Counted from the stretch's first letter, positions 3,295 to 61,244 are shown. The stretch: 64,000 nucleotides of DNA from Seison nebaliae (GCA_023231475.1 JALJEE010000208.1:1-64000), one strand, 5' to 3'. The notes: generated by a model from the sequence alone, not told the origin. Numbers and translations: made by a program.

Positions 3295-3794
3295 ATGACA
3301 GAAATTAATGAATTAGATGAGATTTGTATTTTACGTGCATTCTTATGTCAACGACCATTTGGAGCGAGTCAACATTTCGATATGATACAAACTCATCATC
3401 TTCTCACCAAAATGAATCCAAACACATCCGTCGACGTGAATACTATGTGGAATTATTTAGGGAAACGTTTCGACATCAATTCCATCGTTTCTTTCCTCCT
3501 TCTCCTATTTTTGATTTATAAATTGATTTTTAGGGAAATTCAATTCCGTTACCAATGGAACTGGATTTTTATTCTAAAAAATCCGCAAACGATTTTCTTC
3601 CCTTTCATGAATATTATCAGTCCATGACAACACATCTACCACAAATCGTAAAGAAACCAACTCAAATCTCCGTTCAATCCCCACAAAAAACGAATCGGAT
3701 CACTCGATCGAAGAAATTGAAGGAGTTGGAGGAGACGGTCGTTTCTCCCACAGTCACCATTTCCAGTTTGAGAAAGAGCCGAAGAAACCATTGA
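3295..3794 (+). CDS. MRGBP: MRG-binding protein / Eaf7 (NuA4 subunit); 2 exons, intron 3487-3533
   Basis: DEICILRAFLCQRPFGASQHFDM...MWNYLGKRFDINSI matches the Eaf7/CT20 domain. A GTTTC...TAG intron joins it in frame to ORF 3555-3794. Confidence 0.75.
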
Positions 3795-4270
3795 AAAAAA
3801 GAAAGAAAGAATGAATGAATAATTTTTCAAATTTTTAAAAAAATCCAAATTATTTCAAACTCAATTTTTTTTTTATTCATGACGAATCCCCACGGGGTAA
3901 ATTAGAAAGAAAAAAAGATAACTCCTTAAAGGGGTTATTTAAAATAAGATTGCTATCCGACAGAAATATCGAAACTCGAGATCATCGATAACGTCCCATC
4001 AAGTGAAAACGGATAATTTATCGCGTAATAACGACAGAAAAACTAAAGAGGCGACGAGAAGTCTTCGCATTGTGTATAAGATGGAACTGGAAAAGTTGAA
4101 ATGCGGACAGAGTCAATTATTTAAATGTCATTATTCATGGAAATGATAAAATTTTTTTTTTGGTTTCTTTCTCATAAAGAAATCATGCAAATGAATATTA
4201 CTTTTAATTGACTTGTTGATTTGTAAAATATATAAGAAACATTTTATTTTCATCCTTCTATTACCCTCCA

Positions 4271-7200
4271 ATGAATATCCTTTTTCAATTATTCTTCTAC
4301 TTCTTCTCTTTGTTAGTGATAATAATCGAGAGTAAAAATTCGAATATCCGTTTCATTTCCACCGATGTACTCCAATCGTTTATTCGATTGAAAAATGATA
4401 AATTGAATAAAGAGAAACAGAATTTATTCTCCAATTTGAAGAATGTGAAAATTGGCCATCGTCAGAAGAGTAATCGAGGATTGCAACGTAAATTCCGAGC
4501 CGCCATCTGGTCCAATTATCCGATAACTGACGAATTTAATGAAGAGGATGGATTTTATTCATTTGAAGATGATCCTCAAGAATTGATGAAAGGACCTGAT
4601 TTCTCCAAATCTATAATTTCTCCTTCCAAACCTCAAACTTATACGTTTGATATGAATGAACGAAATTCCATCATTAACACTAACGAACAAGTCATCTATA
4701 ATCTCTTGGATGAAATGAGAAGTAAAAAGGTCGATAACGTCACTTCCCCAATTACTTTGATTGATAATAGATTGGATAAACAACCATCACACGACCAATA
4801 TAAACCAGTGAATTCGAATAAGAATTTAGGAAAATCAGGAATAATTCAATTCTCTCAACCGAAAAATTTAATTAACCAGAAACAAGAAACAATTAAATTA
4901 GTTCCACCGAAACCCAATTTCTCACATGGTCATCTTCAGAAAATCGGGAAATTTAACGATTTTCAAATCAAAGCAAACGTACCTGAACCGGCTAACTTCG
5001 GCAAAGTGCGATTAATAAAGAAACCCGAAGATTTTTTCAAAATCAACGAAAATAAAAAATATGGTAGTTTGGAGAAAGTGGAACACTTTCCTCAAATCGA
5101 CAAATACACTAAAATGAACATTTTGAAAAAAACGAAAAATATTCATGAACGGAAACAATCGAAAACTTTTCAGAATTTTGGAAGATTTAACGATTTCCAA
5201 TTATTGGAAAAACCGGGACGTTTCGAACAATTACAAAAGGCAGATATCATGTCGGAGTTTGGAGGACATGAAAGTGTTGGAAAATTTCAGCCGATTGATA
5301 CGGTTTCCATATCGACTAATTCAAAACCGAAAAACGATTTCTTATTGACTGTTAGTGAAAAAGAAAAAGTGAATAATAAAAGTCAATCGTTGTCAACTAA
5401 AGGAGAGAAAACTGGAAAGATGGGTCGATTACGAAATGGAAAATTGAACAAATATATGATAAAGAAAATCAAAGCGGAGAGGAAGATGACACTCTATCGA
5501 TTACAAGCAGCTGATATTGGTGAGTAAATCTTCTTTTATTCATCATCTTTAACTTATCCATATGTTGAATATTCTTAATATGATTAAGAAAAATCGAAAT
5601 TTATTTTAAAAAGTTTTTTTCTTCGGATCTCCCTAAAAATGTTCTTGATTTGTTCTATTTCAAATTCGAATGAATTTCGGTGTAAATTTAGAAAGAAAAA
5701 ATATCAATTGAAATAATCATTTTTCTTCTTCTAGTGAATATAATTTGGAAGAAATTAAAAGAATTACAACGTGTCGATCATTATGGTTGGTAATCTTTTT
5801 TTTTTAAACTAATTTTCTTCATAACATTCTATTCCAGATTCTCATGGTAGTAATTTATTGAAAGTTTCATTACTTTTGAAAAAATATGAAAGAAGTTAAT
5901 TTTTATTTAAATATTTCATTCTATTATTCATCTGAAAAGTCATTGAGAAAATTGACGATTTGAAAAGCAATCATCAATTCGCTTTAAAGATGATAAGTTT
6001 TATTTGTGATAATTCTACTGATCATTTAGATGATGTTAAAATAGGAAAAGAGAACAAGAAAATGAAAGCAGTCTTCTATTCTGACAATCGATCGAAATAT
6101 TCCTTCGATTTGAATAAATTGAGAGATATGAAAAATCTAAAAAAATCAAGTAGGAATCCGATATGAGAATGTGAAATTTTAGTTTGTTTTCAGAATTGGA
6201 GATTCTCGATAAGAAACTCGCATTGGCGAACAAAGAGAGATCGAGCAAAAGCGAACATTTTGATGATTACGAGAGACGAATAAGAAAATTAGAAAGACAA
6301 TTAGATAATGTTCATAAAAGTTCTCCATTTTCTTATTAGATAATGAATGAGATGATTAAACTATTTAGAAATTGAACTAGTTGAAGATTTCAGATTTAAT
6401 CCTCAACTTTACGATGCTTACAAGAAGAAACGTTTCTTTTCTTTTCTTTTTACCAATCAAATTATCTTTCTCAGTTCCAGAAGAGTTTGATATGGAAATG
6501 AAAGAATTAAGTTTGCTAATTAATTTAATAATTTAATTAATTTCATTATTAGATCTCAAAATGGAACATTTGGACAAGAAGATTTCTGACTTTGATAAAA
6601 AATTTATGCTGATCGAAATGAGTTTCCATTCACTTCTTTTTCTTTCGCTCATTTCTCAGTTCGAGAGAAACGTGGAGCTTTCAAGAATTTTTCATATTCG
6701 AAAGAATCGATGGAACGACTTGGTTAATAATTTATCAATGATAAATGAAAATTTAACTTTCTATTATTTTTAGATAGTGAAATTGAGGAGAAGAGTATCA
6801 TCATGAAGAACAAGAGAGCTGAAGTGACTACAGCGAAAGAAAGTTAGACAAGTGCGAATAATTCGATATGGCTACTTGAAACATTTTAGTCTTAAAAGAA
6901 GCTCTAGATAAATTTACAGGAACGAAAGAACGAGTAGCAGAATTATGTTAATTTAAAATAATTTTTGATTTAATTCCTAATGAAATTTGTTAGATAAAAT
7001 CAAAATCGGTTTACAATCCGAAACGACAGCGATAGGAAAGAGTTTGAAGCTAATGAAAGAAGGTTCACCGTTTTCTTACCAATTTCCATTTGACCACCCC
7101 TACTCAATTGTAGCGTCAACAAATTATACAAAACTGATCGTGGAAAGAAATGGGAAGTTGCTGGTATTAAATGCCGAGAATGATCGAACGTCAAATATAA

Positions 7201-8927
7201 TGGATGAGATCATACAATTACATATCGATAAATCGAATGGTTCTCAAACCGATAAGCTTATGTGTCATTAACAATTTTTATTTTTTAGAATTCAACAGTT
7301 TAAATAAAACGATGAAAGACTTGATGAAAACTCTGAAGGATCTCATCCTCCAATCACAACAGATCAACGGTCAAGGCAACAAAGATTTAGTGGTGATGCT
7401 CAAATGTTTCTTCTTCCTCTTTCTCAAATGTCAACTCACTTGAATTTACGTAGATATAAAGACGATTTTCCCATTAATCGATGCAACGAATTTTGCTGGT
7501 TTTTATTTTACGTTTGAACTAATTGTTATTTTTGAATTTTTATAGGAACAAATGTCGACACAAATTCATTAATTATCATAGCGAAAAATGGTTTCCCTTC
7601 ATTAAATCTTCGATTTGTTCAATGTCTTTCTATTAGAATTGGCGATGTTGAATTTGACTTATTTGGAATTACTCCCGAAATATGCGAAGAATTGTTAGAA
7701 TTCTTCTTCCCCCCATTGGACATCTCATTATCGACATATAATCTCATTAAATAATTTTCAGTAGGTGCAACATATAAAAAAGTTTATAAGAATACGTTAG
7801 TCTTCCCAAAAGATTTGACGACCGTTCCGAACAATTTCACTCAACTTTTCCAACGATCAACGCCCACCGATGAAATTCTTTCCACACTGGGCAGTTATAT
7901 TTTGGTTAAGGATAAGAAAGAAACATTAAAATTATTTTTTCAGAAAAACCAATAAATGAATTGAAAGTATTCAATGTGAGTTTAGGCAAATATAAAAAAT
8001 CTTTAAGTTATCTTCATGTTTGAGAATTGAGGAATTGCAAATTTTTAGATTCGACCAAGAACTTATTGAAAGAGAGTATGAAATTGAATGGGGAAAGCTA
8101 TCCGGATTATTGGAAACGAGAACTGAAATTGTTCAAAGGAACTCGAGCTGAATTGACAGCGACAATGAAGAAAGATATCATCATTTATAGTCTAAATACT
8201 GTAGATCAGATTTTAGCATTAGATTCAGATAAAACCAAAAATCTTATTAAACTCCGAATGAAGTGAATATTTTCATTTTGTTAATTTCATTCTAATAACT
8301 TCCTAGAGCTCAAATTGTTAACAATAACGGTGGTTGGAAAGCATTTGAAGATATGGACGATGCTAAATTAACTGAATTCTTCGGCACAGCAGTTACAACA
8401 CCCGACGTTTTCGTACTCTTATATGAAGGTTTCCAATCGACTAATGAATTAAGAATTATAATTATTCTATTGCAGAGGCAAATGTATTAGACTCACCTCT
8501 CAATATGGCGATCGAAGCTCCTCCACTCAAATTCTTTCCACCTATTTGGGAGAATACCTTTTCCATTTCAAGTGCTGTCAACTACATTTATCCCGATTCC
8601 CGTACGGTGACAACGGCGGAAACAGTTCCTGTAGCATCAGGGGAAACATTCGAAAATTCATTAACGACAGTATCAGATGCGCAAAAGAAAGATATCGATT
8701 TTTATGGGAAGAATATGGCCGTGCCGTATACTATCGTCTATCAGAGATTAACAACATCACCCAAAGATCGATTACATATGTATTTGAAGCCGGGAGCAGT
8801 TGCGAAAAAACTGATAGGAGCCACGGACGAAACGATCGACTTTTACGGTAAAATTATAGTAGATCGAACGGTTGCCATTCCATTAGGAAAAGAATTGGTT
8901 TGTGGAGTGCTTTACACCGATAAGTAA
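4271..8927 (+). CDS. Large multi-exon orphan protein with a predicted signal peptide, degenerate G[KR]F repeats, a coiled-coil middle and a globular C-terminus; exon structure only partly resolved and may be more than one gene
   Basis: Hydrophobic N-terminus. Long first exon ending at a GTGAGT donor (5520), then a chain of short exons bounded by GT...AG introns linking ORF pieces at 5960, 6561, 6987, 7204, 8027 and 8505. Confidence 0.5.
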
Positions 8928-9097
8928 TCGACGAATTTAAATTTGCGACGAATATGACCACAACTTCAAACATCAAGTGCAATAATTAGATGCATGTGCT
9001 CTCATGAGAATTATTTAAAACAAAATAAATTTTAATTTAATTTAAAAATAATTTAATGTTGAAATTCAATTTTGAAAGTTACTGGAAAGTGTTCGAA

Positions 9098-10965: not shown

Positions 10966-11304
10966 ATGAATTCCTCTTCAACGAAAACTAATAAACTCTC
11001 ATCTTCATCTGCTTGTCGACGCATCATATTTCCCACAAACACCACCACCACTAACAACAACAACACTAACAAGATAATCATCGACAAGCCGAACGTCAAT
11101 GAGTTATTGAACAATATTCTTAATGAACATCTTCGTTTGATGAAAGAGAAATGGAATTTCGATTTCGATCAATTCACTCCGTTGAATGGTCGATACGAAT
11201 GGGTGGACATATCGCCACATAACAACAATTATGATTCGAAGATGAAAATGAGAAAGAAGAAACAATTGAAGAAAATTAGGAAACCGTTTTTCCTTCGCAA
11301 TTGA
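10966..11304 (+). CDS. Cip/Kip-family cyclin-dependent kinase inhibitor (p21/p27/dacapo-like); the 3' end may be spliced at the GTTTT donor at 11286
   Basis: ACRRIIF cyclin-binding motif and KWNFDF...PLNGRYEW of the CDI domain. Confidence 0.85.
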   Translation: MNSSSTKTNKLSSSSACRRIIFPTNTTTTNNNNTNKIIIDKPNVNELLNNILNEHLRLMKEKWNFDFDQFTPLNGRYEWVDISPHNNNYDSKMKMRKKKQLKKIRKPFFLRN

Positions 11305-11340
11305 TTCACCTTCGCTTATCCATTTGCTTCTCTTGTATAG

Positions 11341-11398
11341 AACACACACACAAACACACATAAACACACATAAACACACACATAAGCACACACATATA
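11341..11398. repeat. Imperfect (CA)n / (AAACACACAT)n microsatellite
   Basis: aacacacacacaaacacacataaacacacataaacacacacataagcacaca is visible directly. Confidence 0.8.
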
Positions 11399-11731: not shown

Positions 11732-13012
11732 TCAGAATAAGGAGGACTCTTGTGTGTTGAACGATTGAGTCCATGCTTGTTTGAGAGTTGCACTCTTTAA
11801 ATATTCATACGGTATTAGCGGAACATTAGGGAGATATTTGAAATCAGGATTCTTATACTTTCTTCGAAGAACGTTCGTGACAATTTGCCTCCGATATAAT
11901 CGCCAATTAATTTCCTCAATTACTAAATTTAATCTCTTCTCATAAGTAGAGATTGGAAGTTGAGTATAGAATTGACGGAAATAGACGAATGCATTTGGAA
12001 TATGATGTTCTTGAGCCAGTTTATTTAACAATTTCTTTGATAATTGTATCAGAATTGAATTCTCATATGCGATGAATGTGACATGATAATCCCTTTCATT
12101 AACACCGAAATAAGAGTTTGGTGGAAAGGAACCAAGTCCAAATATCAATTCATCTTCCGTGTCATTTATCGTTTCAACGGTACTTTCTAAAATGAGAAAT
12201 TCATATTAATTTAAAATTTCTAATTAAATAATAACGTTTCTTTACAACGCGCACTTTCGAAAAGAAGAAATCATTAACTTCCCTGGCTGGAAATAAGTTG
12301 AATAAATGATAAGATTAGTTACTAAATTAATCATAACCTGAAATTCGTTTTTTCCTAAAAGCATAATCAATTCTCAATTGATTCACTTGTTCTAATGTCA
12401 CTGTGTCCATACGATCGCCATCTTTACGCAAAGGATAAGCATCGACAACATCTTGACTATATTTCACCGGTTTCTCTAAACATCTCGCCACTTCATGCAT
12501 ATCCACCAACTTCCTCAAGAAATATGGTCGACGATGTTCAAAGAAGAAATTAGTCAATTCCTCAAAATGTCTCTCGCACTCTTCGCGTGGCAATGATTTC
12601 CGTTCCTTTTCGATCGATTTTGCCATATTTGTCGCAGCAGTTGTCGCTTCCGTCAATTTCGTTTCATTCTTACTCGATTTTTTTAAGAATTCTAATAAAT
12701 TCGAACTTTCAACCGATTCCATCGCATTGCTGTTATTGTTGTTGGTGTTTAGATTGGATATGGGTAATTTATAGAAATTTCTTTCGAAATCATTTACCAA
12801 ATTATTCTCCTTCTTTTTCTTCTCATAAATATAAGATAAACGTCGATTTCTTATCGGTGGCAAACGATGGGACGATCTTCTTTTTGACTTTTTCGATTTC
12901 TTCATTCTTAATTCATTCAACTTCTTATAATCTTCTTCTTTGAAGAAAGTGGTAAATGGTCGAACGTGATGTTGTAAATATCTCCATCGTATCGATAATG
13001 GTCGTTTTCTTC

Positions 13013-13046
<34 letters not shown>

Positions 13047-14333
13047 GTTATAATTATTATTTTTACTAGAAATTGATGATCTTTTAGCATTACTAAACGT
13101 ACTAATCATCATGCTACTAGGAAATGATTTCAAATTTGGTACAGATGATAAATTGCGACCCATCGATTCATGTGGTTTAGGTACGATATCCTTCAACTTA
13201 TGTCGATAGAGTGCATTCTTCACCAAATTCACTAATTGATATCGACGAGAACTTCTAATTTTCTCATAATCCGAATCATCTTCATCGTCGGATTTAGGGT
13301 CAGATCTCACCGATTGGAAACCTCGGGATGTTACGGATTTCGATTTTACAGTTCGAATCTTTTTATTCAACGTCCTCGTACTAAGTACCATTCGAACACT
13401 TTTATTTTTGGGTTTAGCTCGATATATCGAATCTTTAAGAGATGCCGATTGTAACGTGTCAACTGAACGTTCTTTCAAATTTCCTTTTAATTGTTCTTCA
13501 ATCGAATTATTGAAAGAGAATTTTAATCAATTTAAATCCTAACCCACTTTACCTTTCGTACTTTTCTTATAACTATTTAAAATTTTCAAATATTTCGCTG
13601 GTAAATGAATGGAGGATAACATGTCCACTTTCCCATTAATGACAATGAAAAAATTATCATGCTTTTCTGTACGATACGATTGTACGATATCATCAGGTTG
13701 TGCGAATATTAACGAAGAATTTTTTATTAAAGTACCTAAGGCGGCACATGTCCAATTCTTAAATGATTCGTGTTTCGATAAGAATGACGCCATCACAACC
13801 TCACAATATCTTCGATATTCTAACGTCATTTGTCTCAAATTATCGGGATGAATTGCTAATAATGAGACTGCCGTCCGTGTTATGATAGTGCAAGTTCTTG
13901 ATACAGAAATATAACGACTTAAACCAAAAAAATAATCTTCGCCAATCGTATCGATTGGTTCATCTTCATCGATGAAGAAAACGTTCAATTTTCCTGCTAA
14001 AACATAAAAAATTCCTGAAGATTTATGTCCCGCCCGTATAATGAGACGACCGGGACCAAAATGTCGAATTTCTAAATGTTTCAACCAAAACAATTTCAAA
14101 CCGATGGGCAAATTGTCGTACCGTTTAAACTGGGAGAATATCTTGAGCAACGGGAACAATTGATTGATTGTCCGTTTTGATGTAGGTTGTTTGAGCAACG
14201 CCTTTTCACTCGGCTTCAACGACAACGGACGAATGGCTGGAGCATATTCACTCGGTAGACATGTCGGTTTTATTTTCGGATTTACTGAATTATCTTTAGG
14301 CCATTCGACGCCTGAATCCGATTTGGAACTCAT
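11732..14333 (-). CDS. Cyclic-nucleotide-binding domain protein (CNBD1/CNBD2-like); 4 exons, introns 13496-13543, 12287-12337, 12187-12235
   Basis: CNBD motifs FGPGRLIIRAGH...FYVLAGKLNV...YFFG...RTCTI, and a second CNBD interrupted by a long basic insertion (FFIVINGKVDM ... GSFPPNSYFGV). Three GTT...AG introns join ORFs 13539, 12327 and 11732 in frame. Confidence 0.7.
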
Positions 14334-15182: not shown

Positions 15183-15847
15183 ATGAGGTTTCTTATTCTA
15201 TTCTGTCTGTCTTCTAAATCTATTTCATTGAATTTTTAAGTAATTTAGGAGTACAAAGAAGATTAGCTGCTTCTGTTCTTGGGTGTGGAAAGAAGAAGAT
15301 TTGGTTGGATCCGAATGAACCTGGAACGATTTCCGGAGCGAATAGTCGTCAGAATGTTAAAAGATTGATAAAAGATGGATTGATCATTCGAAAGCCAGTC
15401 GTTGTCCATTCACATTTCCGAGTTCGTCGGAAGTTGGAGGAGAAACGTAAAGGACGTCACATGGGATTAGGAAAGAGGAAAGGTACGAAGAATGCCAGAA
15501 ATCCAGAGAAGACTCAATGGATGAAAAGACAACGTGTCCTACGTCGACTATTAAAACGTTATCGAACAGATCTCAAAATCGACAAACATATGTATCACAC
15601 ACTCTACATGAAGTGCAAAGGTAACGTCTTCAAGAATAAGAGATTGCTCATGGAATATATCCATAAGAAGAAGGCTGAAAACTTGCGACAATTGGAATTG
15701 CAGAACGCTGCTGATTCACGTCGTCAAAAGGCCAAATCACGTAAGGAGAAGATCCAACAGAAACAATTGTTGAAGAAACAGTTATTGATCAAGAAAGTTG
15801 AACCGTCAGACAAGGCAGAGAAGACCACAGAATTAACGGCACAATAA
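15183..15847 (+). CDS. RPL19: 60S ribosomal protein L19 (eL19); intron 15188-15240
   Basis: Spliced product [28 protein letters not shown]...[17 protein letters not shown]...[23 protein letters not shown]. Confidence 0.98.
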
Positions 15848-16578: not shown

Positions 16579-17584
16579 ATGAAGAAAATTCGATTAAATC
16601 TCCAACTTCTATCTACTAACGAGGAGTTCTCAATGAAGATCGATTCGTTAGAAGTGAAAGTTCTTTCCATCAAAGAACAATTGGAATTGGTCATTGGATT
16701 GCCAGTGAATTTAATCAAATTATCATTCAACGATGACGGTTCAGATTATTTTTCCGCTCGAATAACATTAATTAATTTGAATAATTTCAGCTGATTTATT
16801 GGATAATAAGTCATTGAAATTCTACCAGATTTATCATCGAGCACGAATTCAAATGAAAATTTTTCATTTATATGAAACTTTAATAAATGACGTTGTTCAT
16901 GAGAGTTTGGAGAATGTTTGGAAGAATTTCATTTCTTTTTCTAATTTTCAAAAATATTTTCAGTTGAAATCGAATGGAATTTTCCAGAACGAACCATTCT
17001 CATCACCAACGGCGGAATATATGATGAAGAAGGATCGTCAAAATTTTATCAAAGATCGAAATGGCATTGCCATTTATGTGGCATCACATCGAGGTCTATT
17101 AGAAGTTCTTCAATTCATCCAATTCCAATGTGTGACGAAAGAGGAAGAAATAAATTTGAAATATCGTACACCGGTTGGACGGACGGCATTACATGTAGCT
17201 TCCTTTCGTTCAAATTTGAATGTCATCAATTTTTTATTGAATAATGGAATTGGTTTCAATGTGAAAGACGTGAATAATATCACTCCATTGAAGTTGAGTG
17301 AAGAGAATGGGAATGATGGGAAGGATTGTTCGAAAAGATTAATTCAACAAAAATGGATGGATAATAATCGTCGAAATGAACGACCGAAATCTTTGTCGAT
17401 ACGTCATCGGAATTCGAAGAAAGAACATGAAAATATTTTGCCATTCCTACGAAACGATTCGCAGCAACCGACATGGTTAAAGGGACCGTTTATGCAACTT
17501 TATTTCGCTAACAATTTATCGATCAGCAACGATTTCAGTGGAACTATGTTCAATGCTCCAAAACGTCAAACGGTTGAACGTTAG
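16579..17584 (+). CDS. ANKRD60: Ubiquitin-like + ankyrin-repeat protein, ANKRD60-like; introns 16739-16790 and 16916-16963
   Basis: Ubiquitin-like segment (IKEQLELVIGLP...LLDNKSLKFY) followed by IAIYVASHRG and RTPVGRTALHVA ankyrin repeats. Confidence 0.7.
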
Positions 17585-24381: not shown

Positions 24382-24818
24382 GATAAACAAATAAATGAAG
24401 AGAATTTTATTTTACGAATTCGTCAATCGTTCTTATTTCGATTGATCTCCAAATTCATAAGATTCCCATGCCATTTTCTTCATTCCTTCCTATTTTCTCC
24501 TTAATTCTAAATTGTTCCCATTATAAAGTTTATTATTCGAAATATTATTTATAATATTTATTCAATTTCTAACAAATATCAATTTAATACATTCTTTAAT
24601 TAGTTTACATTTCTTCCATCCTCTTCAAAAGAGAATAATGCTCAATATGTTGACTCATTTCAATATGACTAAACTTGTCGGTAAGAAATTACCGTTAAAA
24701 AAATATCATGTTTGAATATCATATTGAATAACATCCAGTTAATAAAACAAAATATAATAAAATAATTAAGAATGATGTTAAGGCACTTTCACATATATCC
24801 TCAATAACTGAGATCGAT

Positions 24819-25710
24819 TTGTTTATTCAGTTCTCTAATTTTTCTCATTATTATCCAGATCCCTATCAGAATGGACGTATCAACAGTAAATCTCGATTAC
24901 TTACAGCTGGAAAGCGTTCGATGCGATGTATATCTCACGACGATTGGATCCAACACAAAAATCGTCTACGTCAATTGAGTATAATTCGGAAGAATAAGGA
25001 AGAGAAAGCACAAATGATACGCGAAGGTTCTGATTTCAATCTATCAAATTTGTTTCATTTCGGGAGAAAACTTTAAAAAAAAATCATTTTACAATTTTTT
25101 CTTCCAACACTTCGATTAGTCGACAAATTATCTTATCACAATATTTGTAGGAGAGTATTTTAAGAAGAGAGAATTCAATTAAATTGTTTAGTTTCTAAAC
25201 AAAAATTTTATGATAAATATTCTTAAATTAATTATCATCATGATCAATTAAGAGGATGATGTTTAGAAAAAAATTAATTATTTGTTTATCTTCATAATAA
25301 ACCATTGCTAATTGGATACGACGGATTTAGATGCGCGAAATGTCAATCATACGTCTCTCAACAAGTTCCAACCCTCCGTTACCCACAATCAGGAATTCGA
25401 CATCATTCATGGCGAAAAGAATATTCAGTTAACCTTTCTCTAATTCTTCACATTGTTTGATTGAGAAAAATTAGGAGTGAAATATCGAAACCGGAAAACA
25501 AGAAACAAAGTTGGAATTTAATTGTTTGAAAAAGAATTTCATAAAAATTTATTTGATATGAAAATATTTGTTGAAAAATTGATTGAAGCAGATCGGCGAA
25601 AAGAGAAGGACTCGAATAAATTATCTCCCTCAAATACAAAGAATGAGAGTTACGATGGATGGATCTCAACTCGGAACGAATTTATGATGAAACATCAATT
25701 GGAACTTTAA
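24819..25710 (+). CDS. Possible small multi-exon coiled-coil protein (boundaries unresolved)
   Basis: Charged helical ORF pieces (SHDDWIQHKNRLRQL; ESYDGWISTRNEFM) separated by GTT...AG intron-like segments. Confidence 0.35.
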
Positions 25711-26481
25711 GATGATTTAAATAAATTATTATATTCATTTCGAAATAAATGAGTTAACGCCGTTTGCGTCGAATACCACGCACTGAGTTGTTGATAATAG
25801 TTTAACGATATTTCGTCATTCGTCAATGAGAGAGATGATGAGGATGACGATGATGACGATGATGACGATGAAGACAAAGAAGATAATGATGATGATGAAT
25901 TAGTTGCTGTAGTTGTCGTTGTTGTTGTAGTTGTTGTCGTTATAGTTTTTGGAATTTTTTCAATTTTATTTGGAGATTCAGATGAATCGATTTGATCATT
26001 ATCAGATTTGAATGATTGAATTTTTATCGATTTGTATTCACACTTTTGTGTTTCATCAAATTTCCTTTTTCTAATTTCATGATTCTCTTCGTCTCCGTCA
26101 TTCCAAAGAGCTCCCTCCATTCTCCAGATGGAGAATGCATAATTTAATGGTTCCTTGGAATCCAATTCATCTGCTCCCAAAGAATTAACGAGATTTGGTG
26201 GAGTAGTTTTGTATAATAGCTCACCATCCGATTCCAATACTAGATGCAGGAATTCGATATATCTAATAGTATTTAATCAATTTCAAAATGAAATTTAAAA
26301 TTCGAAATTTCAAAAGAAGAAAAAGAAACCTGGAGGCTAATCGTAGAGTTTGTATTTTACTCAATTTGTCGGAGGGAAGTGTCGGAATAATCTTTCTCAA
26401 TTGAGAGAATGCACCATTTAACGATTGAGTTCTTTGTCGTTCTCGAACGTTCGCCACACACCGAGTCTCACCAGTAAACAT
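25707..26481 (-). CDS. twist: Twist bHLH transcription factor; intron 26263-26329
   Basis: [47 protein letters not shown], plus the Twist-specific WR motif [12 protein letters not shown]. Confidence 0.95.
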
Positions 26482-33596: not shown

Positions 33597-35068
33597 TTAA
33601 GATGTAAATTGATAAGATTGATGATAATTTCCACCATCCGAATATAACATTCCATCATATGACATTGGAGTTGGATTCATCCAATTATTATTATTCATCA
33701 TTCCATTCTGATTTTGTTGTGATTGGAATTGTAACATTTGTTGTTGTTGTAATTGTTGGTTATTGTTGTTATTATTATTATTATTATTATTCAATTGATC
33801 ATTACTATTATGATGATGAGAGAATTGTTGGAGTGATATGGAAGAAGAATTGTGTTTCATTTCATTTCCAAACATCATCGAAATTTCGTTACAAGAATCA
33901 GTTGATGATAAATTATTCTGATACATATCCAGACAATTGTCGGGCATTGATAACGAATTCATAACATTCATATTCTGATGATTGGTTGGTGAGGAATTGG
34001 AGGAACTGTGATTGATTGGAACAGTAATCGGTTCACTTTTCAATTCTCTTAACGATCCCTCCATTCCCAATATCGTCGATGATGGCATTGATGATGATTG
34101 TTGTTGTTGTTGTTGTTGCTGTGATTGATTATGACAATTTGAGTCATACATCGGAATATTTAATGTTGTTTGAACGCTTTGTATTAGTTTGCTACTTCTC
34201 ATTCCATCGAATGGAATTTTCGAACATTTCATTATTGCTTCGTGACTCTATAACAAAAATATAATTTTAGAATGACCAAATGAAAGAGATGAAATAATTG
34301 AATAACTTCAATAATTACTCGGAATTCGTTCAAATAATTTCTTAGGAGAATATTCTCCTTTTCCACTTTCGCCATATTCGATTGTTCTTCTTGTACTTTC
34401 CTAATATATTCGACTGCCGATTTCAAAATGGAACCTTTATTCGGTTTAGCATCGCTGAAATGACAAGTGTCAAATGTCATCAATACGATATGTATAATAC
34501 AAATATTAACCGTTCATATTCCGGAAGTAATTTCCTGATATCTTCTATTCGATCATTGATTTGTATTCTTCTTTTCTTTTCAACTGAATCATAAAAGTGG
34601 AAATGACAATGAATAGATATAAAATTAACTTTCATTATGTGATTGTTTTCTCGCTAATTCGCGAGTTAACATATTCCTTTCGCCATCCTCCAGTTTCTTA
34701 CCATCTATTTGTTTCTTTACAATTCGATTGACACATCGATTGACATTCACCGTATCGCTCGACGATAGACGTGAAGGCTCTCCAAAATAATCGTTACATT
34801 CACTACTCGGATAATGCAATCCGTCGTCATATCGACAAGAATTGGAACGGATCGTTCTCACCGTCATATCTGAATGCCGTTTCCTTCGATTGAGGACAAA
34901 GTCTTCTTCGAACCTCTTCACCAACGGAGATAAAGGAGTCGTCTATTCCGATTAGAGGGAGAGAATTAGCGTTTCCTTCAAATTCAAATTAACTGGTAGA
35001 CTGTTGGATGTTGTGGTGATGTTAGTCCGAATCGTTTCTATAGGTGAACGAATAAGTTGAACATCATT
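33597..35068 (-). CDS. MITF: MiT/TFE-family bHLH-leucine zipper transcription factor; introns 34943-34993, 34584-34629, 34455-34510, 34248-34306; 5' exon(s) not located
   Basis: Spliced bHLH reads RKQSHNEIEKKRRIQINDRIEDIRKLLPEYERDAKPNKGSILKSAVEYIRKVQEEQ, followed by a zipper and a Q/N-rich tail. Confidence 0.8.
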
Positions 35069-37272: not shown

Positions 37273-37308
<36 letters not shown>

Positions 37309-42977: not shown

Positions 42978-43590
42978 TTTTTTCAAAAAAAAACCGTCGT
43001 ATATGTCTCTGTGATTTCTAATTAGATATTCTTCCTTTTTACCATCTAACACAATTCTTACTTGATCTCAACTCAATTAGTAGGTCATCTAACTGTATGA
43101 ACTGATTAACATGATTAGACTCATTTGTTTACCGAATGGAACTCGTGGATCTTCATTATCACTTTCCACACATCGATTTGATGAGACTTCTCCAGAACGA
43201 GATTAACTAAATTTGCTGACAACTCTACAACTACCAATTTCATCTCAACAAATAACTTCTTCATCACATTACTCTCCCTTGTCCCGTCATCAATTATCTT
43301 ATTGACTTTTCTCCACTTAATTCTTACCATAATCATTCCACCAAATTTCAAATTCCACCAATAAAACGATGGATGGAAAAAATATTGAAATAATTCCCAT
43401 AGAAACGATAAGATCAAATTATTTTATTTAAAAAAAAGTTTAAAAAATTTTCCTTTGATCACTCCCACAAAAGCTTTTTCCCCTAGAGAATTTTATGAGA
43501 AAAAAATGGAAAAGAAAAAAAAATGATGAAGAAAAATTGTTTAATTCTTAAGCGAATGAGAAAATTGAAGATTCTCAGTTGAATGAAAAA

Positions 43591-45330
43591 ATGAAGATGA
43601 TCAGAAATTGGTTGACAATGTTCGTCTTGTTCGTGACGGTGAAGGAGAGACAATTCACCAAAATCAAATCGCTTCGAGAAAGAACGAGAAATTTATTTTT
43701 GATGAATTACGAGACTTATTTACTTGAAGCATTTCCCAAAGACGAATTGAGACCATTGACATGTGACGGATATGATACTTGGGGTGGCTATGCTTTAACC
43801 TTAATCGACAGTCTCTCCACATTGGGAGTGTTGGGACTCAAAGAAGAATTCCATCGAGTAGTCACTCTGATCGAGGAGACGTCATTCATCGATTGTTATC
43901 GAAATGTCAATGTTAGTGTTTTCGAGACGAATATTCGAGTGATTGGTGGATTGATTTCTTCTCATCTTCTCCTTAATCATCCCACACTTCGTATCATCAA
44001 TCAAACATCGATCGATTCTTCTTGGCCTTGTTCCGGCAAATTATTAGACGTCGCTCTCGAATTAGCTGAACGTCTCTTACCAGCATTCGATACGAGAACT
44101 GGAATGCCATATGGAACGGTAAATTTACGAGATGGTGTTCCTCATGATGAAACTCCAATAACGTGTTTAGCTGGTGTGGGAACGTTTATTGTCGAATTCG
44201 GCACATTATCTCGATTAAGTGGAGATGATCGTTTCGAGAAAGTGGCAATGCGTGCATTAGACTCGTTAGAGAGGAATGTCAATTCTGTCACTAAATTATT
44301 CGGAAATCATATTAATGTACTAACTGGTGTTTATACTGCTAGTGATGGAACGATTGGTGCTGGTGTTGATTCATGGTTGGAATATTTGGTAAAAGGTGCA
44401 ATACTTTTCAATAATTCAACTTTATTGAAAATGTTCGAAAAACATAAAAAATCGATCGATTTCTATATGAAACAAAATGTTCCATTTCAACCGACAATCG
44501 ACAAATTCCATGAACGTCGTCAACAATCACGATTATATTATCATTGGGTGAATTCGGTGAGTGGAAATCCATCATATCAATTCATCTCTTCTTTAGACGC
44601 TTATTATCCAGGAATTCTCTTTCTCTCTTCCAACCATCATGATGACGAAGCAAGAAGTTTCATCCGAACATTATTCCATGACATTTGGAAACGTTATGGA
44701 ATATTACCAGAATATTATTTAATAAATACTGAAAATATATTGAAAGGACGAGAATTTGGTGCATTACGTCCTGAATTAATCGAGAGTATTTGGTACATGA
44801 AATTGAAAGGAAATGACGAGGAAGCTATCGATATGGCAGAAGAGATTTTATATTCCATCGAAAAATTGGGTGTTAATCGTCAACAATGCGCCAATGAAGC
44901 AAAAAAATTGAAAATTATTCATTCTATTAAAAATAAATTTCATGTCAATATTCCACTCAATACGTCACTCATTACTACTATAAAAGATTGTGAGACACAT
45001 GAATTGGATAATCGTCTAGAAAGTTTTGTTTTAGCTGAAACGTTGAAATATCTCTATTTGATCTTCGATGAAGAACATTGGCTAAATCACAAATCTCTCA
45101 TTTATTCGTCTGATGTCTGTCCGATATTAGGTGAGAGATATATTATGAACACAGAGGCACATCCCATTGATATCGCCGCTGTTCGTTGTTGTCATCGAGC
45201 GAATAGTCGAGCCACTATCGCTTTCAATTATTTATTAAAAATGGATCCACATCAATCACTCAATCAACTCAATTGTTCTCACGTCGACGATCTACATTTT
45301 GCAGGTGAGAAAATTTTTGAAGAACTTTGA
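43591..45330 (+). CDS. EDEM2: ER degradation-enhancing alpha-mannosidase-like protein (GH47); intronless
   Basis: DELRPLTCDGYDTWGGYALTLIDSL, VSVFETNIRVIGGL, IGAGVDSWLEYLVK, LRPELIES, ESFVLAETLKYLYL, NTEAHP. Confidence 0.9.
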   Translation: MKMIRNWLTMFVLFVTVKERQFTKIKSLRERTRNLFLMNYETYLLEAFPKDELRPLTCDGYDTWGGYALTLIDSLSTLGVLGLKEEFHRVVTLIEETSFIDCYRNVNVSVFETNIRVIGGLISSHLLLNHPTLRIINQTSIDSSWPCSGKLLDVALELAERLLPAFDTRTGMPYGTVNLRDGVPHDETPITCLAGVGTFIVEFGTLSRLSGDDRFEKVAMRALDSLERNVNSVTKLFGNHINVLTGVYTASDGTIGAGVDSWLEYLVKGAILFNNSTLLKMFEKHKKSIDFYMKQNVPFQPTIDKFHERRQQSRLYYHWVNSVSGNPSYQFISSLDAYYPGILFLSSNHHDDEARSFIRTLFHDIWKRYGILPEYYLINTENILKGREFGALRPELIESIWYMKLKGNDEEAIDMAEEILYSIEKLGVNRQQCANEAKKLKIIHSIKNKFHVNIPLNTSLITTIKDCETHELDNRLESFVLAETLKYLYLIFDEEHWLNHKSLIYSSDVCPILGERYIMNTEAHPIDIAAVRCCHRANSRATIAFNYLLKMDPHQSLNQLNCSHVDDLHFAGEKIFEEL

Positions 45331-46120: not shown

Positions 46121-47762
46121 ATGAGACTTTCAAAACAATTTTTTAATTTTGCAAAACTAAAACCCAAATCTTCTTGCAACGGGTTTCACTTAATATAGTT
46201 TCTAAATATTCTACTTTGATAGTATTGTTGAGTTAATTGAATATCTTCGACCTTTATCTTATGGAGATCAACTCAAATGGAAAGTGAATGAAATTGAAAA
46301 GAATTGGAGAAATCTAAGTACGACACTGTTGTGGGATGAGCATTTGCCGAGTCGAACTAGAAAATATTTGTTGGAGAACTATCTTTTGTATACACACTCA
46401 CCCACACTAATAGGAGTGATATCAGAAGTTTCATTTATTTTAATTTCAATCCAAAAAATTTTTGATGTGAAGGAAGAATTGGATTCATATCGAACACAAG
46501 ATACATTTCTTTGTGGGAGGAATGATGACAATGAGATTCAAGTTGGTTACTATTTGAAGAGAGGAGAAAAGCAGCCTTTAATTGTAGAAGCCGACGATCT
46601 TTGTACAATTCGACAGAAACATTTGAAAATTGGAAAATTATTCAAAAATTTTTTAGAAACTGCTACATCGTTTCGGATGGAAAAAGGAGAGAAGGAAACT
46701 ATGAAAAATTGGAAGAATGTCTTCCATCGGATAAATGTTAAATCGAATGATGATGAAAGTGATTGTCTCTTATCAATACATGCATGTCTCCGCCATCTAA
46801 CGGAAAAAGAGAAGGAATTATTGAAATTTGAATTAAAAGATTATTTCAATGGAAATGATTTGATTTCTTCTCTCGTTCTCATTAATAGTCCAAACGATAA
46901 CATATTTTGGGATACGAGAATTGAGAAGATTATCGGAAATGGTTTCTTCGTAGAGAAATATGATAATTATCAGATTCGTCAATCTTCTTTTTCCACACCG
47001 AAAGTTCATCGAAATCAATTGATAAAAATGATGAAACAAATTAAAAACCATTTGGATGGATCGTTTAACGATTCTGTCTTGATCGATGTATGTTGCGATA
47101 GTGGATTATCATCAATCTTCTTATCAGATAATTTCCTTCAAGTATTTGCCATTGATCCCACCAAATGGTTGATCGATGATATGTTGTACAATATAGAAAG
47201 AAATAGTTCCAAATTTTTTTTTATACAGGAAATATTTGTGATATACTATTTTGATGTTTAATTAGATATCGGAAATATTTCAGCAATTTTTGGAAAATCT
47301 TATCCGAGATTGAAGGGTTTATTATATAAGTTAACGAAAGAAAAAGAGACAGATGCAATGAAGTTTAAGGATATAACGTTGCTAATTCATGTGGATTATA
47401 CGAAAATAACATCTGATGGTTTTTTTTAATTACAATTTTTTACCTATTTTGTTCTAGTTCGAAAGATTGTTAGACTCGCACGTTTAAATGATAATGTGAA
47501 GAATGTAATTTATATATCTCAAAATATTGGTGGTCCAGCTCTCCATAATATTTATGAGATGACTGCTGGAAATAATCGAGGTGAAAAACTGTTTGGGAAA
47601 CCATTTTTCCCTATAGACCAAATTTTCGTTGATTTAATTCCACAAACGACGGTGGTGGGAAGTGTGATATTTTTGAAAAAATTAGAAAATGATTTTCATC
47701 CACCTGACACCCGAATCTGGGAATTCCATAATGAGATTTTCGAGAATATGAAAAATTCATAA
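46121..47762 (+). CDS. TRMT2-family m5U RNA methyltransferase-like protein with a degenerate active site; introns 46183-46222, 46428-46472, 47206-47265, 47419-47457
   Basis: PLSYGDQLKWK, SYRTQDTF, LIDVCCDSG, NVIYISQ and KLFGKPF...VDLIPQT occur in the order of the TRMT2A/B motifs. The N-terminus resembles a mitochondrial presequence. Confidence 0.7.
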
Positions 47763-47816
47763 AAACATTTTCTTTTTCTTCTTCCTATATCAGAGAGTGT
47801 TTTTTATAATGAGAGA

Positions 47817-49343
47817 ATGAAATTGATACGAATTCCTTTTCGGGCGTATAACGTCCGCAATTTGGACAATGATATGGCATCATTATTCCAGAACGAGACC
47901 CGTTTGGAATCCATGAGAAGAAATTTAGATACTCGACAATTTATTGTTGATTTGGAAAAGATTCGATCGAAATGGAAAGAACTCCTTAAATTACGACAAC
48001 GTATCAACGAAATAGAAAATGAACAAAAAATATTAAATAAAAAAATTCTTTCTATCGTGAGAGATGGAAATATGATACCAGAAGATTTGAAAGTTGTCGG
48101 ACGTCGTTTGCGGAAGAAACATCAAGAAATTCATGAAAATGAATTGAATCCAACAGAGCTGATGTTGCGGAGAGCATTCCGTCAACTCCCCAATTCACTG
48201 CACGAATTTAGTGCACGGGTACCAAAAGCAGTAGCTCATCCACTTCGTTCCGATGATATATTTAGTTTGACAACGGTCTACCGTTCCGTCAGAAATAAAC
48301 CGTCATCATCTAATTTTGCATTGAGGAGTTTCCGTCAATTGTTAGATTATTGTGCGAGACCAATGCCGACAACAGATCCAGTTCCTTGGTTTGAATGGAG
48401 ATCGTCTCAACCGAAAACAACGGAGACGTTATTGCAAGATAAGAATTCGTTCATTACTTCCAAAATGGCGATTATACATGATGCAATTCCACGATATTTT
48501 AGAGGTGAATTATTGAAACTCCTAAAGAAAGAGACGATTGATGTGGAGGAAGTTGATGGTCCCTCACTCATTAAATCATCAGTTATTGACGATTGTGGTT
48601 TGGATTCAAATGATACTTCCTCCATTTATTCTTTGAACTCAACGAGCAGTACGTCTGACAATGACCGATTACATGTTGTTGGCAATGCATCGTTACCTTC
48701 ATTAGTAACGAATCTCCGACATCAAACTGATGTGATTACTCCGAAAATATTTTTGACTAATGGTCGTTATTATTCAGTTAAACGATGGCATGAAGCCAAT
48801 TGTGTTAGTGTTCTAGGTGTAACAGGCAACGAATCCAAATATAATATGTTCAATAATTGGAAAAACGAAGTGAGAGATACGAACGACATGTACAAATATT
48901 TAATAGATAAGAAAATGAATAGTTCTCAACTGGATCTTAATAAAACCGATCATATGTTCCAATGTCTATTACATCATTTCCTCCAAATCTACACGCAATT
49001 AGATATGCATTTCCGATTGGTGAATGTTAATGCAGCTGATCTGAAAAAAAACGAATCGTTACGTCTGGAAATTCATTGTTTTTCTCCATCAACTCACCAA
49101 TATATTCCAGTTGCACGTCTCGCCATTCTCAACGATTATATCAGTCGCCGATCAGATATTCATATATCATCTGAAGGAAAACAGAATATAAAGTTCCCTC
49201 AGATGATATATGGGTCGCTGGTTTACACACCTTTCATGTTCGTCACTCTCATCGAAAATCGGCAATTGCCTCGCGGTTCTAAGAAGATTATCGACATTCC
49301 AGACAAATTAGAACCATATCTAGTGAATCGAACATTTATTTAA
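47817..49343 (+). CDS. Seryl-tRNA-synthetase-like protein with degenerate class II motifs (SLIMP-like); intronless
   Basis: Coiled-coil tRNA-binding arm, LPNSLH, FRLVNVNAADL, NDYISRR and LIENRQ...IDIPDKLEPYL match the SerRS fold. Motif 2 and motif 3 catalytic signatures are not recognisable. Confidence 0.75.
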   Translation: MKLIRIPFRAYNVRNLDNDMASLFQNETRLESMRRNLDTRQFIVDLEKIRSKWKELLKLRQRINEIENEQKILNKKILSIVRDGNMIPEDLKVVGRRLRKKHQEIHENELNPTELMLRRAFRQLPNSLHEFSARVPKAVAHPLRSDDIFSLTTVYRSVRNKPSSSNFALRSFRQLLDYCARPMPTTDPVPWFEWRSSQPKTTETLLQDKNSFITSKMAIIHDAIPRYFRGELLKLLKKETIDVEEVDGPSLIKSSVIDDCGLDSNDTSSIYSLNSTSSTSDNDRLHVVGNASLPSLVTNLRHQTDVITPKIFLTNGRYYSVKRWHEANCVSVLGVTGNESKYNMFNNWKNEVRDTNDMYKYLIDKKMNSSQLDLNKTDHMFQCLLHHFLQIYTQLDMHFRLVNVNAADLKKNESLRLEIHCFSPSTHQYIPVARLAILNDYISRRSDIHISSEGKQNIKFPQMIYGSLVYTPFMFVTLIENRQLPRGSKKIIDIPDKLEPYLVNRTFI

Positions 49344-49442
49344 CAATTTTTATTTCTTGTTTTATCAAATACATCAGACCAGCATATTTTTGTAAGAGAA
49401 AAAGAAAAGAGAATAATAAAAATGAAAATTTTTTTAAATATT

Positions 49443-50192
49443 TTAATTATTTGACAATATTTCTGGTGGGGATTGTTGTTGTGGTGGTTCGTTTGGCGAT
49501 TGTGTTTCATTCTTATAATCATTCGATAAATATTTTTCGTCATCATTCTCGTTAATTATCATAAATTGCGTCATTAAATAGTGATCGATTAAATTGAGGG
49601 AACATAAAAAAATTAGAAGAATTCCTGAAAACGGTTATCAGATAAGTCAAATGAATGAAATGGGAACCTGCAAACATTCCGGGAACGCTAGAAATTATTG
49701 GCACGAATGTTGGTAATGCCAAAAGCAGATATATAATTGACAATTTCCATTGTTTCGTTAAATTTAAATAAAAGTCTGTAACTCTTTAAAAGAAAAGTTG
49801 AAAGTGGAAGTGTGAGAAAATGAGAGAACGGATAATTTTCTTTTAATTGATCGACATCATAATATTTTTGATGTTGTGAACGAAATTCGATTTCTGTCAT
49901 AATTATTGCAATTAATCTTGATATGTAGACAACAAAGGCAAATTAAACAAGTTAAAAATTTCTTACCAACAATAGATAACATCCAATGAATCGGGAACCA
50001 GTCGTTGCTATACAAGAGATGGCGAACGCCCATTCACCTATCGACGAAGGTCAATCGGAAGAGCATATTGAAACAAAAGAATATTAAATCGAAAAAAAAA
50101 CATAATGTTATGAGTATTCCAAAAATCTGACGAATCGGTTTGAGATATCGATGACAAGATTGGAAAAACATTCTTTTTCTTTCACTTTCCAT
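49443..50192 (-). CDS. Four-TM membrane protein, TMEM72-like; 5 exons
   Basis: Four GTT...AG introns give a continuous frame: MESERKRMFF...RQIFGILITLCEWAFAISC...FIGCYLLLIAIIMTEIE...WKLSIIYLLLALPTF...AGILLIFLCSLNLI. The family call is tentative. Confidence 0.5.
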
Positions 50193-58987: not shown

Positions 58988-59268
58988 TGATAAATGAGAA
59001 ATGAAGTAAGCGAACGAAAAGAAAAGAAAAAGAAAAACTTGCAAAATTAAAATTTAGTGGGTTGCCATGACATTGAAAAGTTACATATAAATCGAAGATG
59101 TGGAATGGTAGGATAAAGTGGAAAAAATGTGAAAGCAATGGAAAATTTTTCCGTTTCATATTTTCCCACATTTCTTTCCTTTCGAATAGGAGGCGTTAAT
59201 TCTCTCCTCAAATTATTAGTCATTTCACATTTCCATGATTCTCTAATAATCATTTGTTGCATTTGAGA

Positions 59269-61244
59269 ATGGTTAACACGGACGCTTCTTATGTCTTGAA
59301 TCCTGAAGATATTCGTCATTTCCATCAACAATTCACTTCTACTCATCAATGGACAATGAAACATAATGTTCCCCTTTACAACTCTTCTCATTTCCTTCTT
59401 CATCTCATCAACAGGATATCAAACAAATCAGTCAACGAAGAACTTGCGAATTCTCCAACAATGAGTCTCTCGCTAATTTAAATCGGAATCGTTATGCCAA
59501 TGTTCTGTCATGTTCCTCACTATTATTCTCTTTTTAGAATTTCATTTTTCTTTTCTTTTTTTAAGTCGATCATACTCGAGTTCATCTTCCACAAACCAAA
59601 AATGATTACATCAATGCCAATTTCGTCTATTTCCCATCTGTTGATCAGATTTACATTTCCGCACAAGGGCCACTCGATGGAACGATTCATCACTTCTGGC
59701 ATATGATCTGGAATCTCAACATTAATTGTATTGTCATGTTGAATAATTTGGAAGAGAAAAAACGTGTTAGTCTCATTATTTCCCTCCCTCTCTCTTTCTC
59801 TCTCTCTCTCTCACATTTTACTCACCATTAAAAACGATAAAAAAGTTTTTTTTTAAAAAGATTTCATTTTTGAATATTTTTCCGGAAATTATCATTAAAT
59901 GGGAAATTTGATTTTTCTTTTCATTCTTCCAGATAAAATGCGCAATGTATTATCCAAGTTTTGATAATTTGGATAAAAGAGGTTCCCATTTTGTTTCAGG
60001 AAATTTACTCATCAATCTCTTCTCGTTGTCATGGTAACCGATGACCAGATAGCAACATGGACGTCAAGAGTGTTTACGAAGCCAATAAGAACATGTTCCA
60101 CATAATCTGCATTAGTGAAATAACGGAAAATGAGAATTATACGATTCGAGAACTTTCCGTCTTCAATTATGAGATGTGTGAACATCGAACAATTTTTCAT
60201 TGTCATTATGTGAAGTGGCCAGATTTCGGCGCTCCAGTCGTTGATTCCAACTTCCTACAATTTATAGAAGTTGTTCATCGTTATGATAGTTTTGGACGAA
60301 AAAAAAATAAATTGAGTTCCGTCCCACCAAATTCTTCGAACGAAAAACATTTATGTCATTTTAGTCATCCACCTTTACTCGTTCACTGTTCGGCTGGTAT
60401 CGGTCGAACTGGAACATTTATAGTCATCGATCTTTGTATGAAACTTCTCGATCGATTCGTTTCAACATCGAAACAAGATGAAACGATGACTAATTTCGTT
60501 GAACTTGTCGTTCATTTGAGAACATGTCGAGAAGGATTAATTCAATCACCATCTCAATTAGAATTCTGTGTAGAATTCCTCCTTTACTTCATTGACAATT
60601 ATCTAACGGGAAAGAGAAACGAACAAATTATTGACTTCAATTACAAATTACCCACAACTTGCTTAAAGAATGACGAAAATGTTGAAGAGCCAAATTGTAA
60701 AATTTCACATCGACCACAATCAGCGAGACATTCTCAAAAATTACAACGAAATCCATTGACGACTATGAGTATTTTAACTGAATTCGAAAAATTGGATGAT
60801 CATCGTCGAATGTCGATCGGTGATGACGATAATGACGACGACGACGATTTTGATGGACATGATCGACCAACAACTGCCATTTATCAGAATGATCCTAAAA
60901 ACGAAATGGAATTTCCCAAATCTTTGGAATTGGAAGGAATTATCAAAAATTATAAGAAAGCTCATAATTTCGAAGATAAATTAGAATGGAATATGAATGC
61001 TAATTATTCGGAAAGATCGTCATCGGACAACAATTATTCCAAGAGGACATCGGTGGAAAAGTATCAACAGACTACGGAAATGGTTGATGATCGGAAGGAA
61101 TTTGAAAATTCCATCAAAAAATTACGGGAAGAATATAAACGAGAGAAATATCAAATGATATTGTTCTCAATGGGAATTGGAATTCTATTCGGTATTGGAT
61201 CATTTTATCTTTCTATTTATATCCGAGAACATCTTTTCTTTTAA
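59269..61244 (+). CDS. Non-receptor protein tyrosine phosphatase, PTP1B/TC-PTP (PTPN1/2)-like, with a C-terminal membrane anchor; introns 59368-59414, 59512-59565, 59766-59932, 59982-60048
   Basis: RNRYANV, DYINAN, QGPL, FWHMIW, IVMLN, KCAMYYP, WPDFG, VHCSAGIGRTG, GLIQSPSQ, and a hydrophobic C-terminal tail. Confidence 0.88.
60025..60038. promoter_or_regulatory. Near-perfect RFX X-box GTTGTCATGGTAAC inside PTP intron 4
   Basis: 14-bp palindrome with a single mismatch to GTTGCC-AT-GGTAAC. Confidence 0.55.

Follow-up and report, generated by a model that had tools for sequence, protein, structure and literature searches.

Animal introns usually start with GTA or GTG, and the purine at the third intron position (+3) and the 5' end of U1, a small nuclear RNA (snRNA), belong to the best-conserved traits of gene structure in animals. 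Here, we analyze the 5' splice sites (donors) in a stretch of 64,000 nt from Seison nebaliae (GCA_023231475.1 JALJEE010000208.1:1-64000; G+C content 32%), which is referred to as the window. T is found at +3 in 58 of 64 predicted introns, which are distributed over 12 genes treated in an earlier note and a 13th gene at 4271-8927. Seison nebaliae, a minute relative of the rotifers, lives on crustaceans. PMC8351084 describes it as a seisonid rotifer that has a compact genome (about 46 Mb) and occurs in two diverged lineages. In the protein database, two proteins of the window, BBS4 (SNEBB_000334) and a kinase (SNEBB_000332), carry the label Seison nebaliae.

Comparison with described splice signals

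The closest described system is that of Entamoeba, which has GUUUGU donors and a candidate U1 with the sequence ACAAAC (Roy and Bowser, bioRxiv 10.1101/2022.06.08.495308). According to this preprint, U1 is changed in the only lineage with U at +3 that it covers and unchanged in several lineages with an altered +4, and the signal transformation is tied to massive intron loss. Seison resembles Entamoeba in having +3U as the rule, GT-AG introns and an AT-rich genome. Entamoeba, however, is intron-poor and has a strict motif (88-90% GUUUGU; bioRxiv 10.1101/2022.06.08.495308), whereas only +3 is fixed in Seison, where GTTTGT occurs once among 64 donors, +4U is not enriched and +5G is at 22%. In addition, Seison is an animal in which a gene can have as many as 21 predicted introns.

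With standard animal U2-type (major) donors, those from Seison share the GT-AG ends and the tendencies toward -2A/-1G and +5G. Two classes of U2-type donors are distinguished, NN//GURAG and AG//GU (PMC11732430). Most Seison donors fit neither of them, and the exon ends with AG in only 10 of 64 cases. GURAG accounts for 44% of the donors in C. elegans (PMC11347140) but for 1/64 in Seison. A genome-wide change of splice signals in an animal lineage is described for Fritillaria borealis (PMC13326754). There, the terminal dinucleotides have changed and the donors are G-rich, whereas the Seison window retains GT-AG and is changed at +3.

A literature search, with subscription papers, supplements and the 2023 annotation paper outside its scope, yielded no GUU consensus for Seison or another animal. 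The main text of PMC8351084 mentions splicing or introns in three places and describes no splice-site motif in any of them. No such consensus appears in the accessible parts of PMC10125929, PMC11347168, PMC10599564, PMC11347140 and PMC10158995. The GUU consensus is less new than the earlier note suggested, as GUU donors with a changed U1 are already published for Entamoeba (bioRxiv 10.1101/2022.06.08.495308).

GTT at the start of the predicted introns

All intron models are predicted from genomic DNA and from deposited proteins, which are gene models themselves. The sequencing runs (X1-X5) behave as DNA, with no spliced joints in their alignments to the window; X2-X5 represent one sample, possibly the source of the window. 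Two further runs, X6 and X7, yielded no contig that aligned to the window. By basis, 18 introns come from deposited proteins (15 with GTT), 12 from genes with motif or homology support (all with GTT) and 34 from ab initio or hand models (31 with GTT). When the 12 genes from the earlier note were rebuilt, its totals of 43 introns and 40 GTT donors were reproduced, while the split differed (12 introns in the kinase gene and 3 in the MITF-like gene, rather than 11 and 4). The donors it had quoted were found in place (RPL19 15188; CFAP20 55668, 55542 and 55196; BBS4 56400 and 57130; PTP 59368), and so were its three exceptions, all in the kinase gene (54064 GTGAAT, 53778 GTCACA and 52601 GTAAAT). 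The 13th gene has GTT at 18 of its 21 donors, the exceptions being 5520 GTGAGT (215-nt intron), 6150 GTAGGA and 8263 GTGAAT. The statement that no donor starts with GTAAG or GTGAG thus applies to the 43 introns but not to the window.

The GTT start of the predicted introns is real and far above background. At +3, A is observed 2 times (8.7 expected), C once (14.1 expected) and G 3 times (8.7 expected). C is thus avoided as strongly as A, and the usual purine of the GURAG consensus is found in only 5/64 donors. T follows 41.7% of the 5558 GT dinucleotides on both strands of the window; intron interiors consist of 47.6% T, and T follows 41 of the 77 non-donor GT within introns. The excess of +3T over background T is highly significant (binomial p = 3e-16 and 3e-13). 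An order-2 model of the introns expects 32.5 GTT among 64, compared with the 58 observed (p = 1e-11). Within the zone 38-72 nt before the acceptor of the same short intron, GTT accounts for 56/61 used GT but for 23/65 unused GT (p = 2e-11). Among GTRAG sites in gene bodies, 1/15 is used, compared with 4/14 GTTAG sites; unused sites in exons that are far from an acceptor count as weak evidence. Three uncertain candidate donors outside the set of 64 (24710, 61163 and 62575) are also GTT. One of them lies in a possible two-exon gene (24638-25076, plus strand) without homology support, where the donor-blind model described below prefers GTTTGA at 24710 (0.85) over GTAAGA at 24681.

Donor positions were checked in three ways. 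First, four deposited proteins (P0001, P0121, P0212 and P0213) were mapped onto the window. They define 19 donors, 16 of which are GTT, the exceptions being those in the kinase gene. For 15 junctions (4 in BBS4 and 11 in the kinase gene), the mapping is exact, and each has a GT-AG solution. The protein ends served to place the first intron in each of BBS4 and RPL19 as well as both alternative last donors of the kinase. GT-AG was required when the introns other than these 15 were modeled, so they do not test the intron ends.

Second, every frame-compatible GT/GC-AG pair was scored against homologs. A GTT donor scores best for CFAP20 introns 1-3 (among 9, 15 and 6 pairs) and for BBS4 introns 2, 4 and 5. 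An in-frame GTACAA, which is 6 nt from the CFAP20 donor 55196, scores lower. At the kinase junctions 6-10, one of which has the GTAAAT exception, the PKN1 alignment is free of gaps.

Third, a donor-blind gene model was used, which has a flat distribution at +3; long open frames, together with the interiors and acceptors from 18 deposited introns, served as its training set. The posterior-weighted share of T at +3 is 0.73 over 45.7 expected introns, 0.71 over 57.9 with other settings, and 0.85-0.86 after re-estimation. In controls with reset donors, it returned 0.84 A when all were set to A. With an A/G mix, A came to 0.57 and G to 0.33; with a background mix (24/61 donors with T), T came to 0.35. 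As the controls recover the letters that were set, the donor-blind method does not favor T.

The genes that carry the 64 introns are listed with their support; posteriors are those of the donor-blind model.

3295..3794, plus strand: MRGBP/Eaf7-like gene; one intron, donor 3487 GTTTCT; frame open once joined; Pfam Eaf7 at E=7e-4, which falls short of the curated cut-off; posterior 0.86-0.92
4271..8927, plus strand: unnamed gene, outside the set of the earlier note; 22 predicted exons and 21 introns from ab initio prediction and hand joining; GTT donors 5786, 5895, 6320, 6432, 6511, 6622, 6723, 6843, 6947, 7063, 7240, 7406, 7499, 7591, 7694, 7894, 7980 and 8429; donors 6150, 6320 and 6432 placed by hand; 1163 codons without internal stop when joined
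11732..14333, minus strand: cyclic-nucleotide-binding-domain gene; donors 13543 GTTAGG, 12337 GTTATG and 12235 GTTATT; Pfam cNMP_binding; posteriors 0.95, 0.76 and 0.76; open frame
15183..15847, plus strand: RPL19; intron 15188-15240, donor GTTTCT, acceptor AAG; joined frame shares start and end with deposited P0001; posterior 1.00
16633..17584, plus strand: ubiquitin-like plus ankyrin gene (called ANKRD60-like in the earlier note); donors 16739 GTTCAG and 16916 GTTTGG; Pfam Ank_2; posteriors 1.00 and 0.82-0.94
25707..26481, minus strand: bHLH gene (called twist-like in the earlier note); donor 26329 GTTTCT; Pfam HLH; posterior 0.97
33597..34867, minus strand: MITF/TFE-like bHLH gene, model partial at its 5' end; donors 34629 GTTAAT, 34510 GTTAAT and 34306 GTTATT; exon 2 weakly matches MITF chains (E=0.1); posteriors 0.99, 0.99 and 0.66
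46121..47762, plus strand: TRMT2-like gene; donors 46183 GTTTCA, 46428 GTTTCA, 47206 GTTCCA and 47419 GTTTTT; Pfam tRNA_U5-meth_tr E=0.002 (below cut-off); posteriors 0.77-1.00
49443..50192, minus strand: small membrane-protein gene, hand model with open frame; donors 50101 GTTTTT, 49970 GTTGGT, 49829 GTTCTC and 49667 GTTCCC; GTAAGA at 49966 unused; ab initio support at most 0.42; the earlier name TMEM72-like is unconfirmed
52091..54497, minus strand: PKN-like kinase SNEBB_000332 (deposited isoforms P0212 and P0213); GTT donors 54361, 54270, 53934, 53491, 53276, 53016 (301-nt intron), 52469 and 52325; the isoforms differ in the last donor (52180 or 52173, the latter placed by eye), 7 nt apart and both GTT, and in their C-termini
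55040..55752, minus strand: CFAP20; donors 55668 GTTCGA (c.84), 55542 GTTAAT (c.164) and 55196 GTTCAA (c.465)
56087..57711, plus strand: BBS4 SNEBB_000334 (deposited P0121); donors 56097 GTTAAT, 56400 GTTTAA, 56548 GTTTCT, 57130 GTTCAT and 57361 GTTTGT
59269..61244, plus strand: protein tyrosine phosphatase (PTP); donors 59368 GTTCCC, 59512 GTTCCT, 59766 GTTAGT (167-nt intron) and 59982 GTTCCC; Pfam Y_phosphatase; exon 3 aligned to PTP chains over its whole length; posteriors 0.76-1.00

The 1163-codon protein predicted from the unnamed gene has a hydrophobic N-terminus and includes a run of short phase-1 exons with lengths that are multiples of three; six pieces of it were searched without a Pfam match at E<0.04. 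A frame without introns (57884-59053, minus strand; about 350 codons) is located between BBS4 and the phosphatase; it lacks a Pfam match, and its N-terminal part is predicted to be hydrophobic. At 61975-61981, a repeat-like stretch within a glutamine-/proline-rich frame has a summed contig depth of about 700-970.

Beyond +3, the splice signals are weak. The introns are 38-72 nt long in 61 of 64 cases, the others having 167, 215 and 301 nt. Signals in the normal register persist, with G at -1 in 24, A at -2 in 37 and G at +5 in 14 donors (4.8 expected), so that +5G is weakened (22%) but not lost. There is no significant bias at +4 (T in 23 donors, 29.7 expected), and +6G (5/64) corresponds to expectation (5.3). 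Two associations were noticed after the fact: +4A is found in 5/6 non-GTT donors compared with 16/58 GTT donors (p = 0.012), and +5G in 3/3 introns longer than 100 nt compared with 11/61 shorter ones (p = 0.009). The acceptors are TAG (27), CAG (24), AAG (11) and GAG (2), and a pyrimidine tract is present (T at -7, -6 and -5 in 41, 49 and 42 of 64). The T-rich acceptor resembles nematode UUUCAG. No branch motif is prominent, YTRAY being present in 32/64 introns compared with 27.2 in shuffles (p = 0.12). Minor (U12-type) introns have the donor RTATCC, which is absent among all 64 donor hexamers.

Proposed causes of the change at +3

As +3 is specifically U beyond what intron composition explains, donor recognition must differ from the usual, which is what the earlier note had concluded. 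The Seison splicing machinery has likely changed how the intron start is read. We give an even chance to the proposal that the major spliceosome has a U1 snRNA with A, not U, opposite +3. The avoidance of C at +3 suggests A as the likelier partner, since G would accept C. The short intron would be defined as a unit, its acceptor and the narrow length range setting a small search zone. In this zone, GU followed by U would win because a changed U1 5' end would form a Watson-Crick pair at +3. The changed end might read ACUAAC, or ACAAAC as in Entamoeba, and the simplest change would be U to A at U1 position 6. With this replacement, donors with three or fewer pairs drop from 17/64 to 3/64, a gain which follows from the +3T count itself and is no independent test. 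A donor that lacks +3U would depend on matches elsewhere (+4A, +5G). Rather than being replaced, old introns would have been rewritten individually. In the broader form of the proposal, an animal recoded its major 5' splice site by a changed base in U1 (or U6), its ancestral introns going from GURAG to GUU while the remaining donor decayed; for this scenario, confidence and doubt are evenly balanced.

Several observations weigh against this proposal. At +5, C is enriched (19 vs. 10.0 expected) and T depleted (12 vs. 27.4), which fits no U1 model. The donor GTGAGT at 5520 is perfectly canonical and is apparently used, according to the prediction. For BBS4 intron 3, a GTC donor beats the deposited GTT donor by homology (47.2 vs. 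44.0). All junctions are predicted ones, and 34/64 introns are ab initio or hand models. The cause is proposed from the donors, and no snRNA was found by Rfam in the 64-kb window. This search gave no match at the gathering score and four weak ones (E up to 5), none of them spliceosomal. Below that score and inside long open frames, SNORD62 (41687-41772, plus strand, E=0.015) and SL1 (21999-22105, plus strand, E=0.27) are probably chance matches. Finally, yeasts, Thecamonas and Micromonas have a standard U1 despite atypical donors (bioRxiv 10.1101/2022.06.08.495308), and Fritillaria has two versions of U1 that do not differ at the 5' end, its non-canonical donors being ascribed to snRNA modification and U2AF (PMC13326754).

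These last two reports also favor an alternative that we regard as possible but rather doubtful. U1 would be standard, and +3U would be selected later or by protein, through a change in the U6 ACAGAGA box (A facing +3), snRNA methylation, or altered U1-C, LUC7, SNRNP27K or Prp8. Commitment is argued to occur mainly at the hand-off to U5 and U6 (PMC11732430). The -1G/-2A and +5G tendencies suit U5 and U6 as well as U1. An unchanged U6 has a G near +3. For this G, C should be no worse a partner than U, but +3C occurs once in 64 donors. The effects of METTL16 and SNRNP27K concern +4, which has no significant bias here. Moreover, the only published +3U case found, Entamoeba, has a changed U1 (bioRxiv 10.1101/2022.06.08.495308).

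It is unlikely that U1 pairing has been lost or nearly so, with short introns defined by acceptor and length and with GUU read by the tri-snRNP or by U-binding proteins. The narrow length range would fit, as would the little information besides +3 and +5 and the 17/64 donors that make at most three pairs with a standard U1. Cyanidioschyzon lacks U1 but retains GUAAGU donors (PMC10158995). In Seison, introns of 167-301 nt exist, the two kinase isoforms have alternative donors, and the T content just after the donor is barely raised (0.525 vs. 0.488).

Roca and Krainer reportedly described GUU donors in a shifted register in 2009. In such donors, GUU is followed by +6G and +7U. A standard U1 that is one base out of step (shifted or bulged), with +3U pairing to U1 A7, would explain +3U without an snRNA change, and GTTAAT is the commonest donor hexamer (8/64). 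We consider this very improbable for Seison, which shares the GUU start but not the displaced tail: +6G is at expectation, GTTNNGT occurs in 0/58, the G excess is at the unshifted +5, and the mean number of pairs is 3.77 compared with 4.13 in the normal register.

Least credible of all is an artefact (T-rich introns, biased donor placement by hand or software, or a burst of mobile introns ending in GTT), for although the introns are predicted from DNA, T is the commonest base after GT in the window and 37 intron pairs reach a score of 24 (20-26 in three shuffles), the donor-blind model distinguishes the real donors (0.71 T) from its controls, homology fixes 3/3 CFAP20 and 3/4 tested BBS4 donors, all GTT, and one intron (BBS4 intron 2) is at a human position. 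Introner-type mobile introns were rejected, as the best intron-pair score (32) is within the range of shuffles (29-34), the mean is 15.1 (14.2-14.5 in shuffles), and no sequence family emerges.

Intron age, a diverged genome and implications

The assumption that old introns had their donors rewritten is supported in part. BBS4 intron 2 interrupts codon 88 in phase 2, which corresponds by alignment to residue 120 of chain 6xt9_D. Compared with 6vbu_4 (519 residues), this chain has 9 additional residues and an offset of 9 in the second domain, which leads to human codon 111. A human BBS4 variant is listed as c.332+1 (PMC8610957), which places a human intron after base 2 of codon 111. The Seison intron thus has the same position and phase as the human c.332 intron. 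The variant, c.332+1G>GTT, is from Bardet-Biedl patients, with the break in splicing predicted only (PMC8610957); it sits at the position of Seison BBS4 intron 2, the donor of which is GTTTAA. Human BBS4 introns at c.864 or c.1036 were not confirmed by any paper in the literature search.

For CFAP20, a motif check was made on 80 metagenome loci out of 390 confirmed ones, chosen by an unbroken exon match; none of the 80 is identifiable as rotifer. Two of them (L010 and L073) have a GTGAG intron at c.84, where 33/80 have no intron, and no GT intron was found in the 80 loci at c.164 or c.465. Among 150 representative CFAP20 proteins, 16 turn to Val and unrelated sequence after residue 155, a weak pattern that might resemble read-through of a GT intron at c.465. 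The RPL19 and MITF intron positions are presumably shared with vertebrates. Four long conserved genes on the plus strand are without a predicted coding intron (31632-33296, 43552-45327, 47763-49340 and 581-2302). This set comprises ATP synthase alpha, glycosyl hydrolase 47, a seryl-tRNA-synthetase-like frame and a PH plus GLTP protein. They adjoin genes with 12-21 introns, a pattern of patchy intron loss or gain.

Besides the window itself, X1-X5 contain short contigs with a depth of 2-4, which are about 88-92% identical to the window in exons and would fit a second Seison lineage as described in PMC8351084. Among the alignments listed, those of this second genome stop at +3 of donors 55668, 56400 and 50101, at +4 of 53934, at +7 of 57361 and at +10 of 54361; at the GTC exception 53778, the stop is at +2. 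On the acceptor side, they reach -2 (54223), -3 (57186), -5 (53895) and -14 (56133). Two contigs span kinase intron 3. The AAG acceptor 57186-57188 is kept in one contig. These break points support the junctions and suggest conservation of +3T beside divergence of the intron body, which counts in favor of the U1 proposal above; the sample is small and consists of alignment end points, not of letters, a point held against it.

Gene finders trained on other animals would misplace donors in the Seison lineage. The tie between signal transformation and intron loss would be undone by an intron-rich animal in which +3U is fixed and the remaining donor is degenerate. If the recoding proposed above is true, splice sites and snRNA would have co-evolved in an intron-rich genome whose signals are degenerate. 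Entamoeba, with few introns and a strict motif, presents the reverse. Whether U1 and thousands of donors can co-evolve, and via which intermediates, would become testable with public data.

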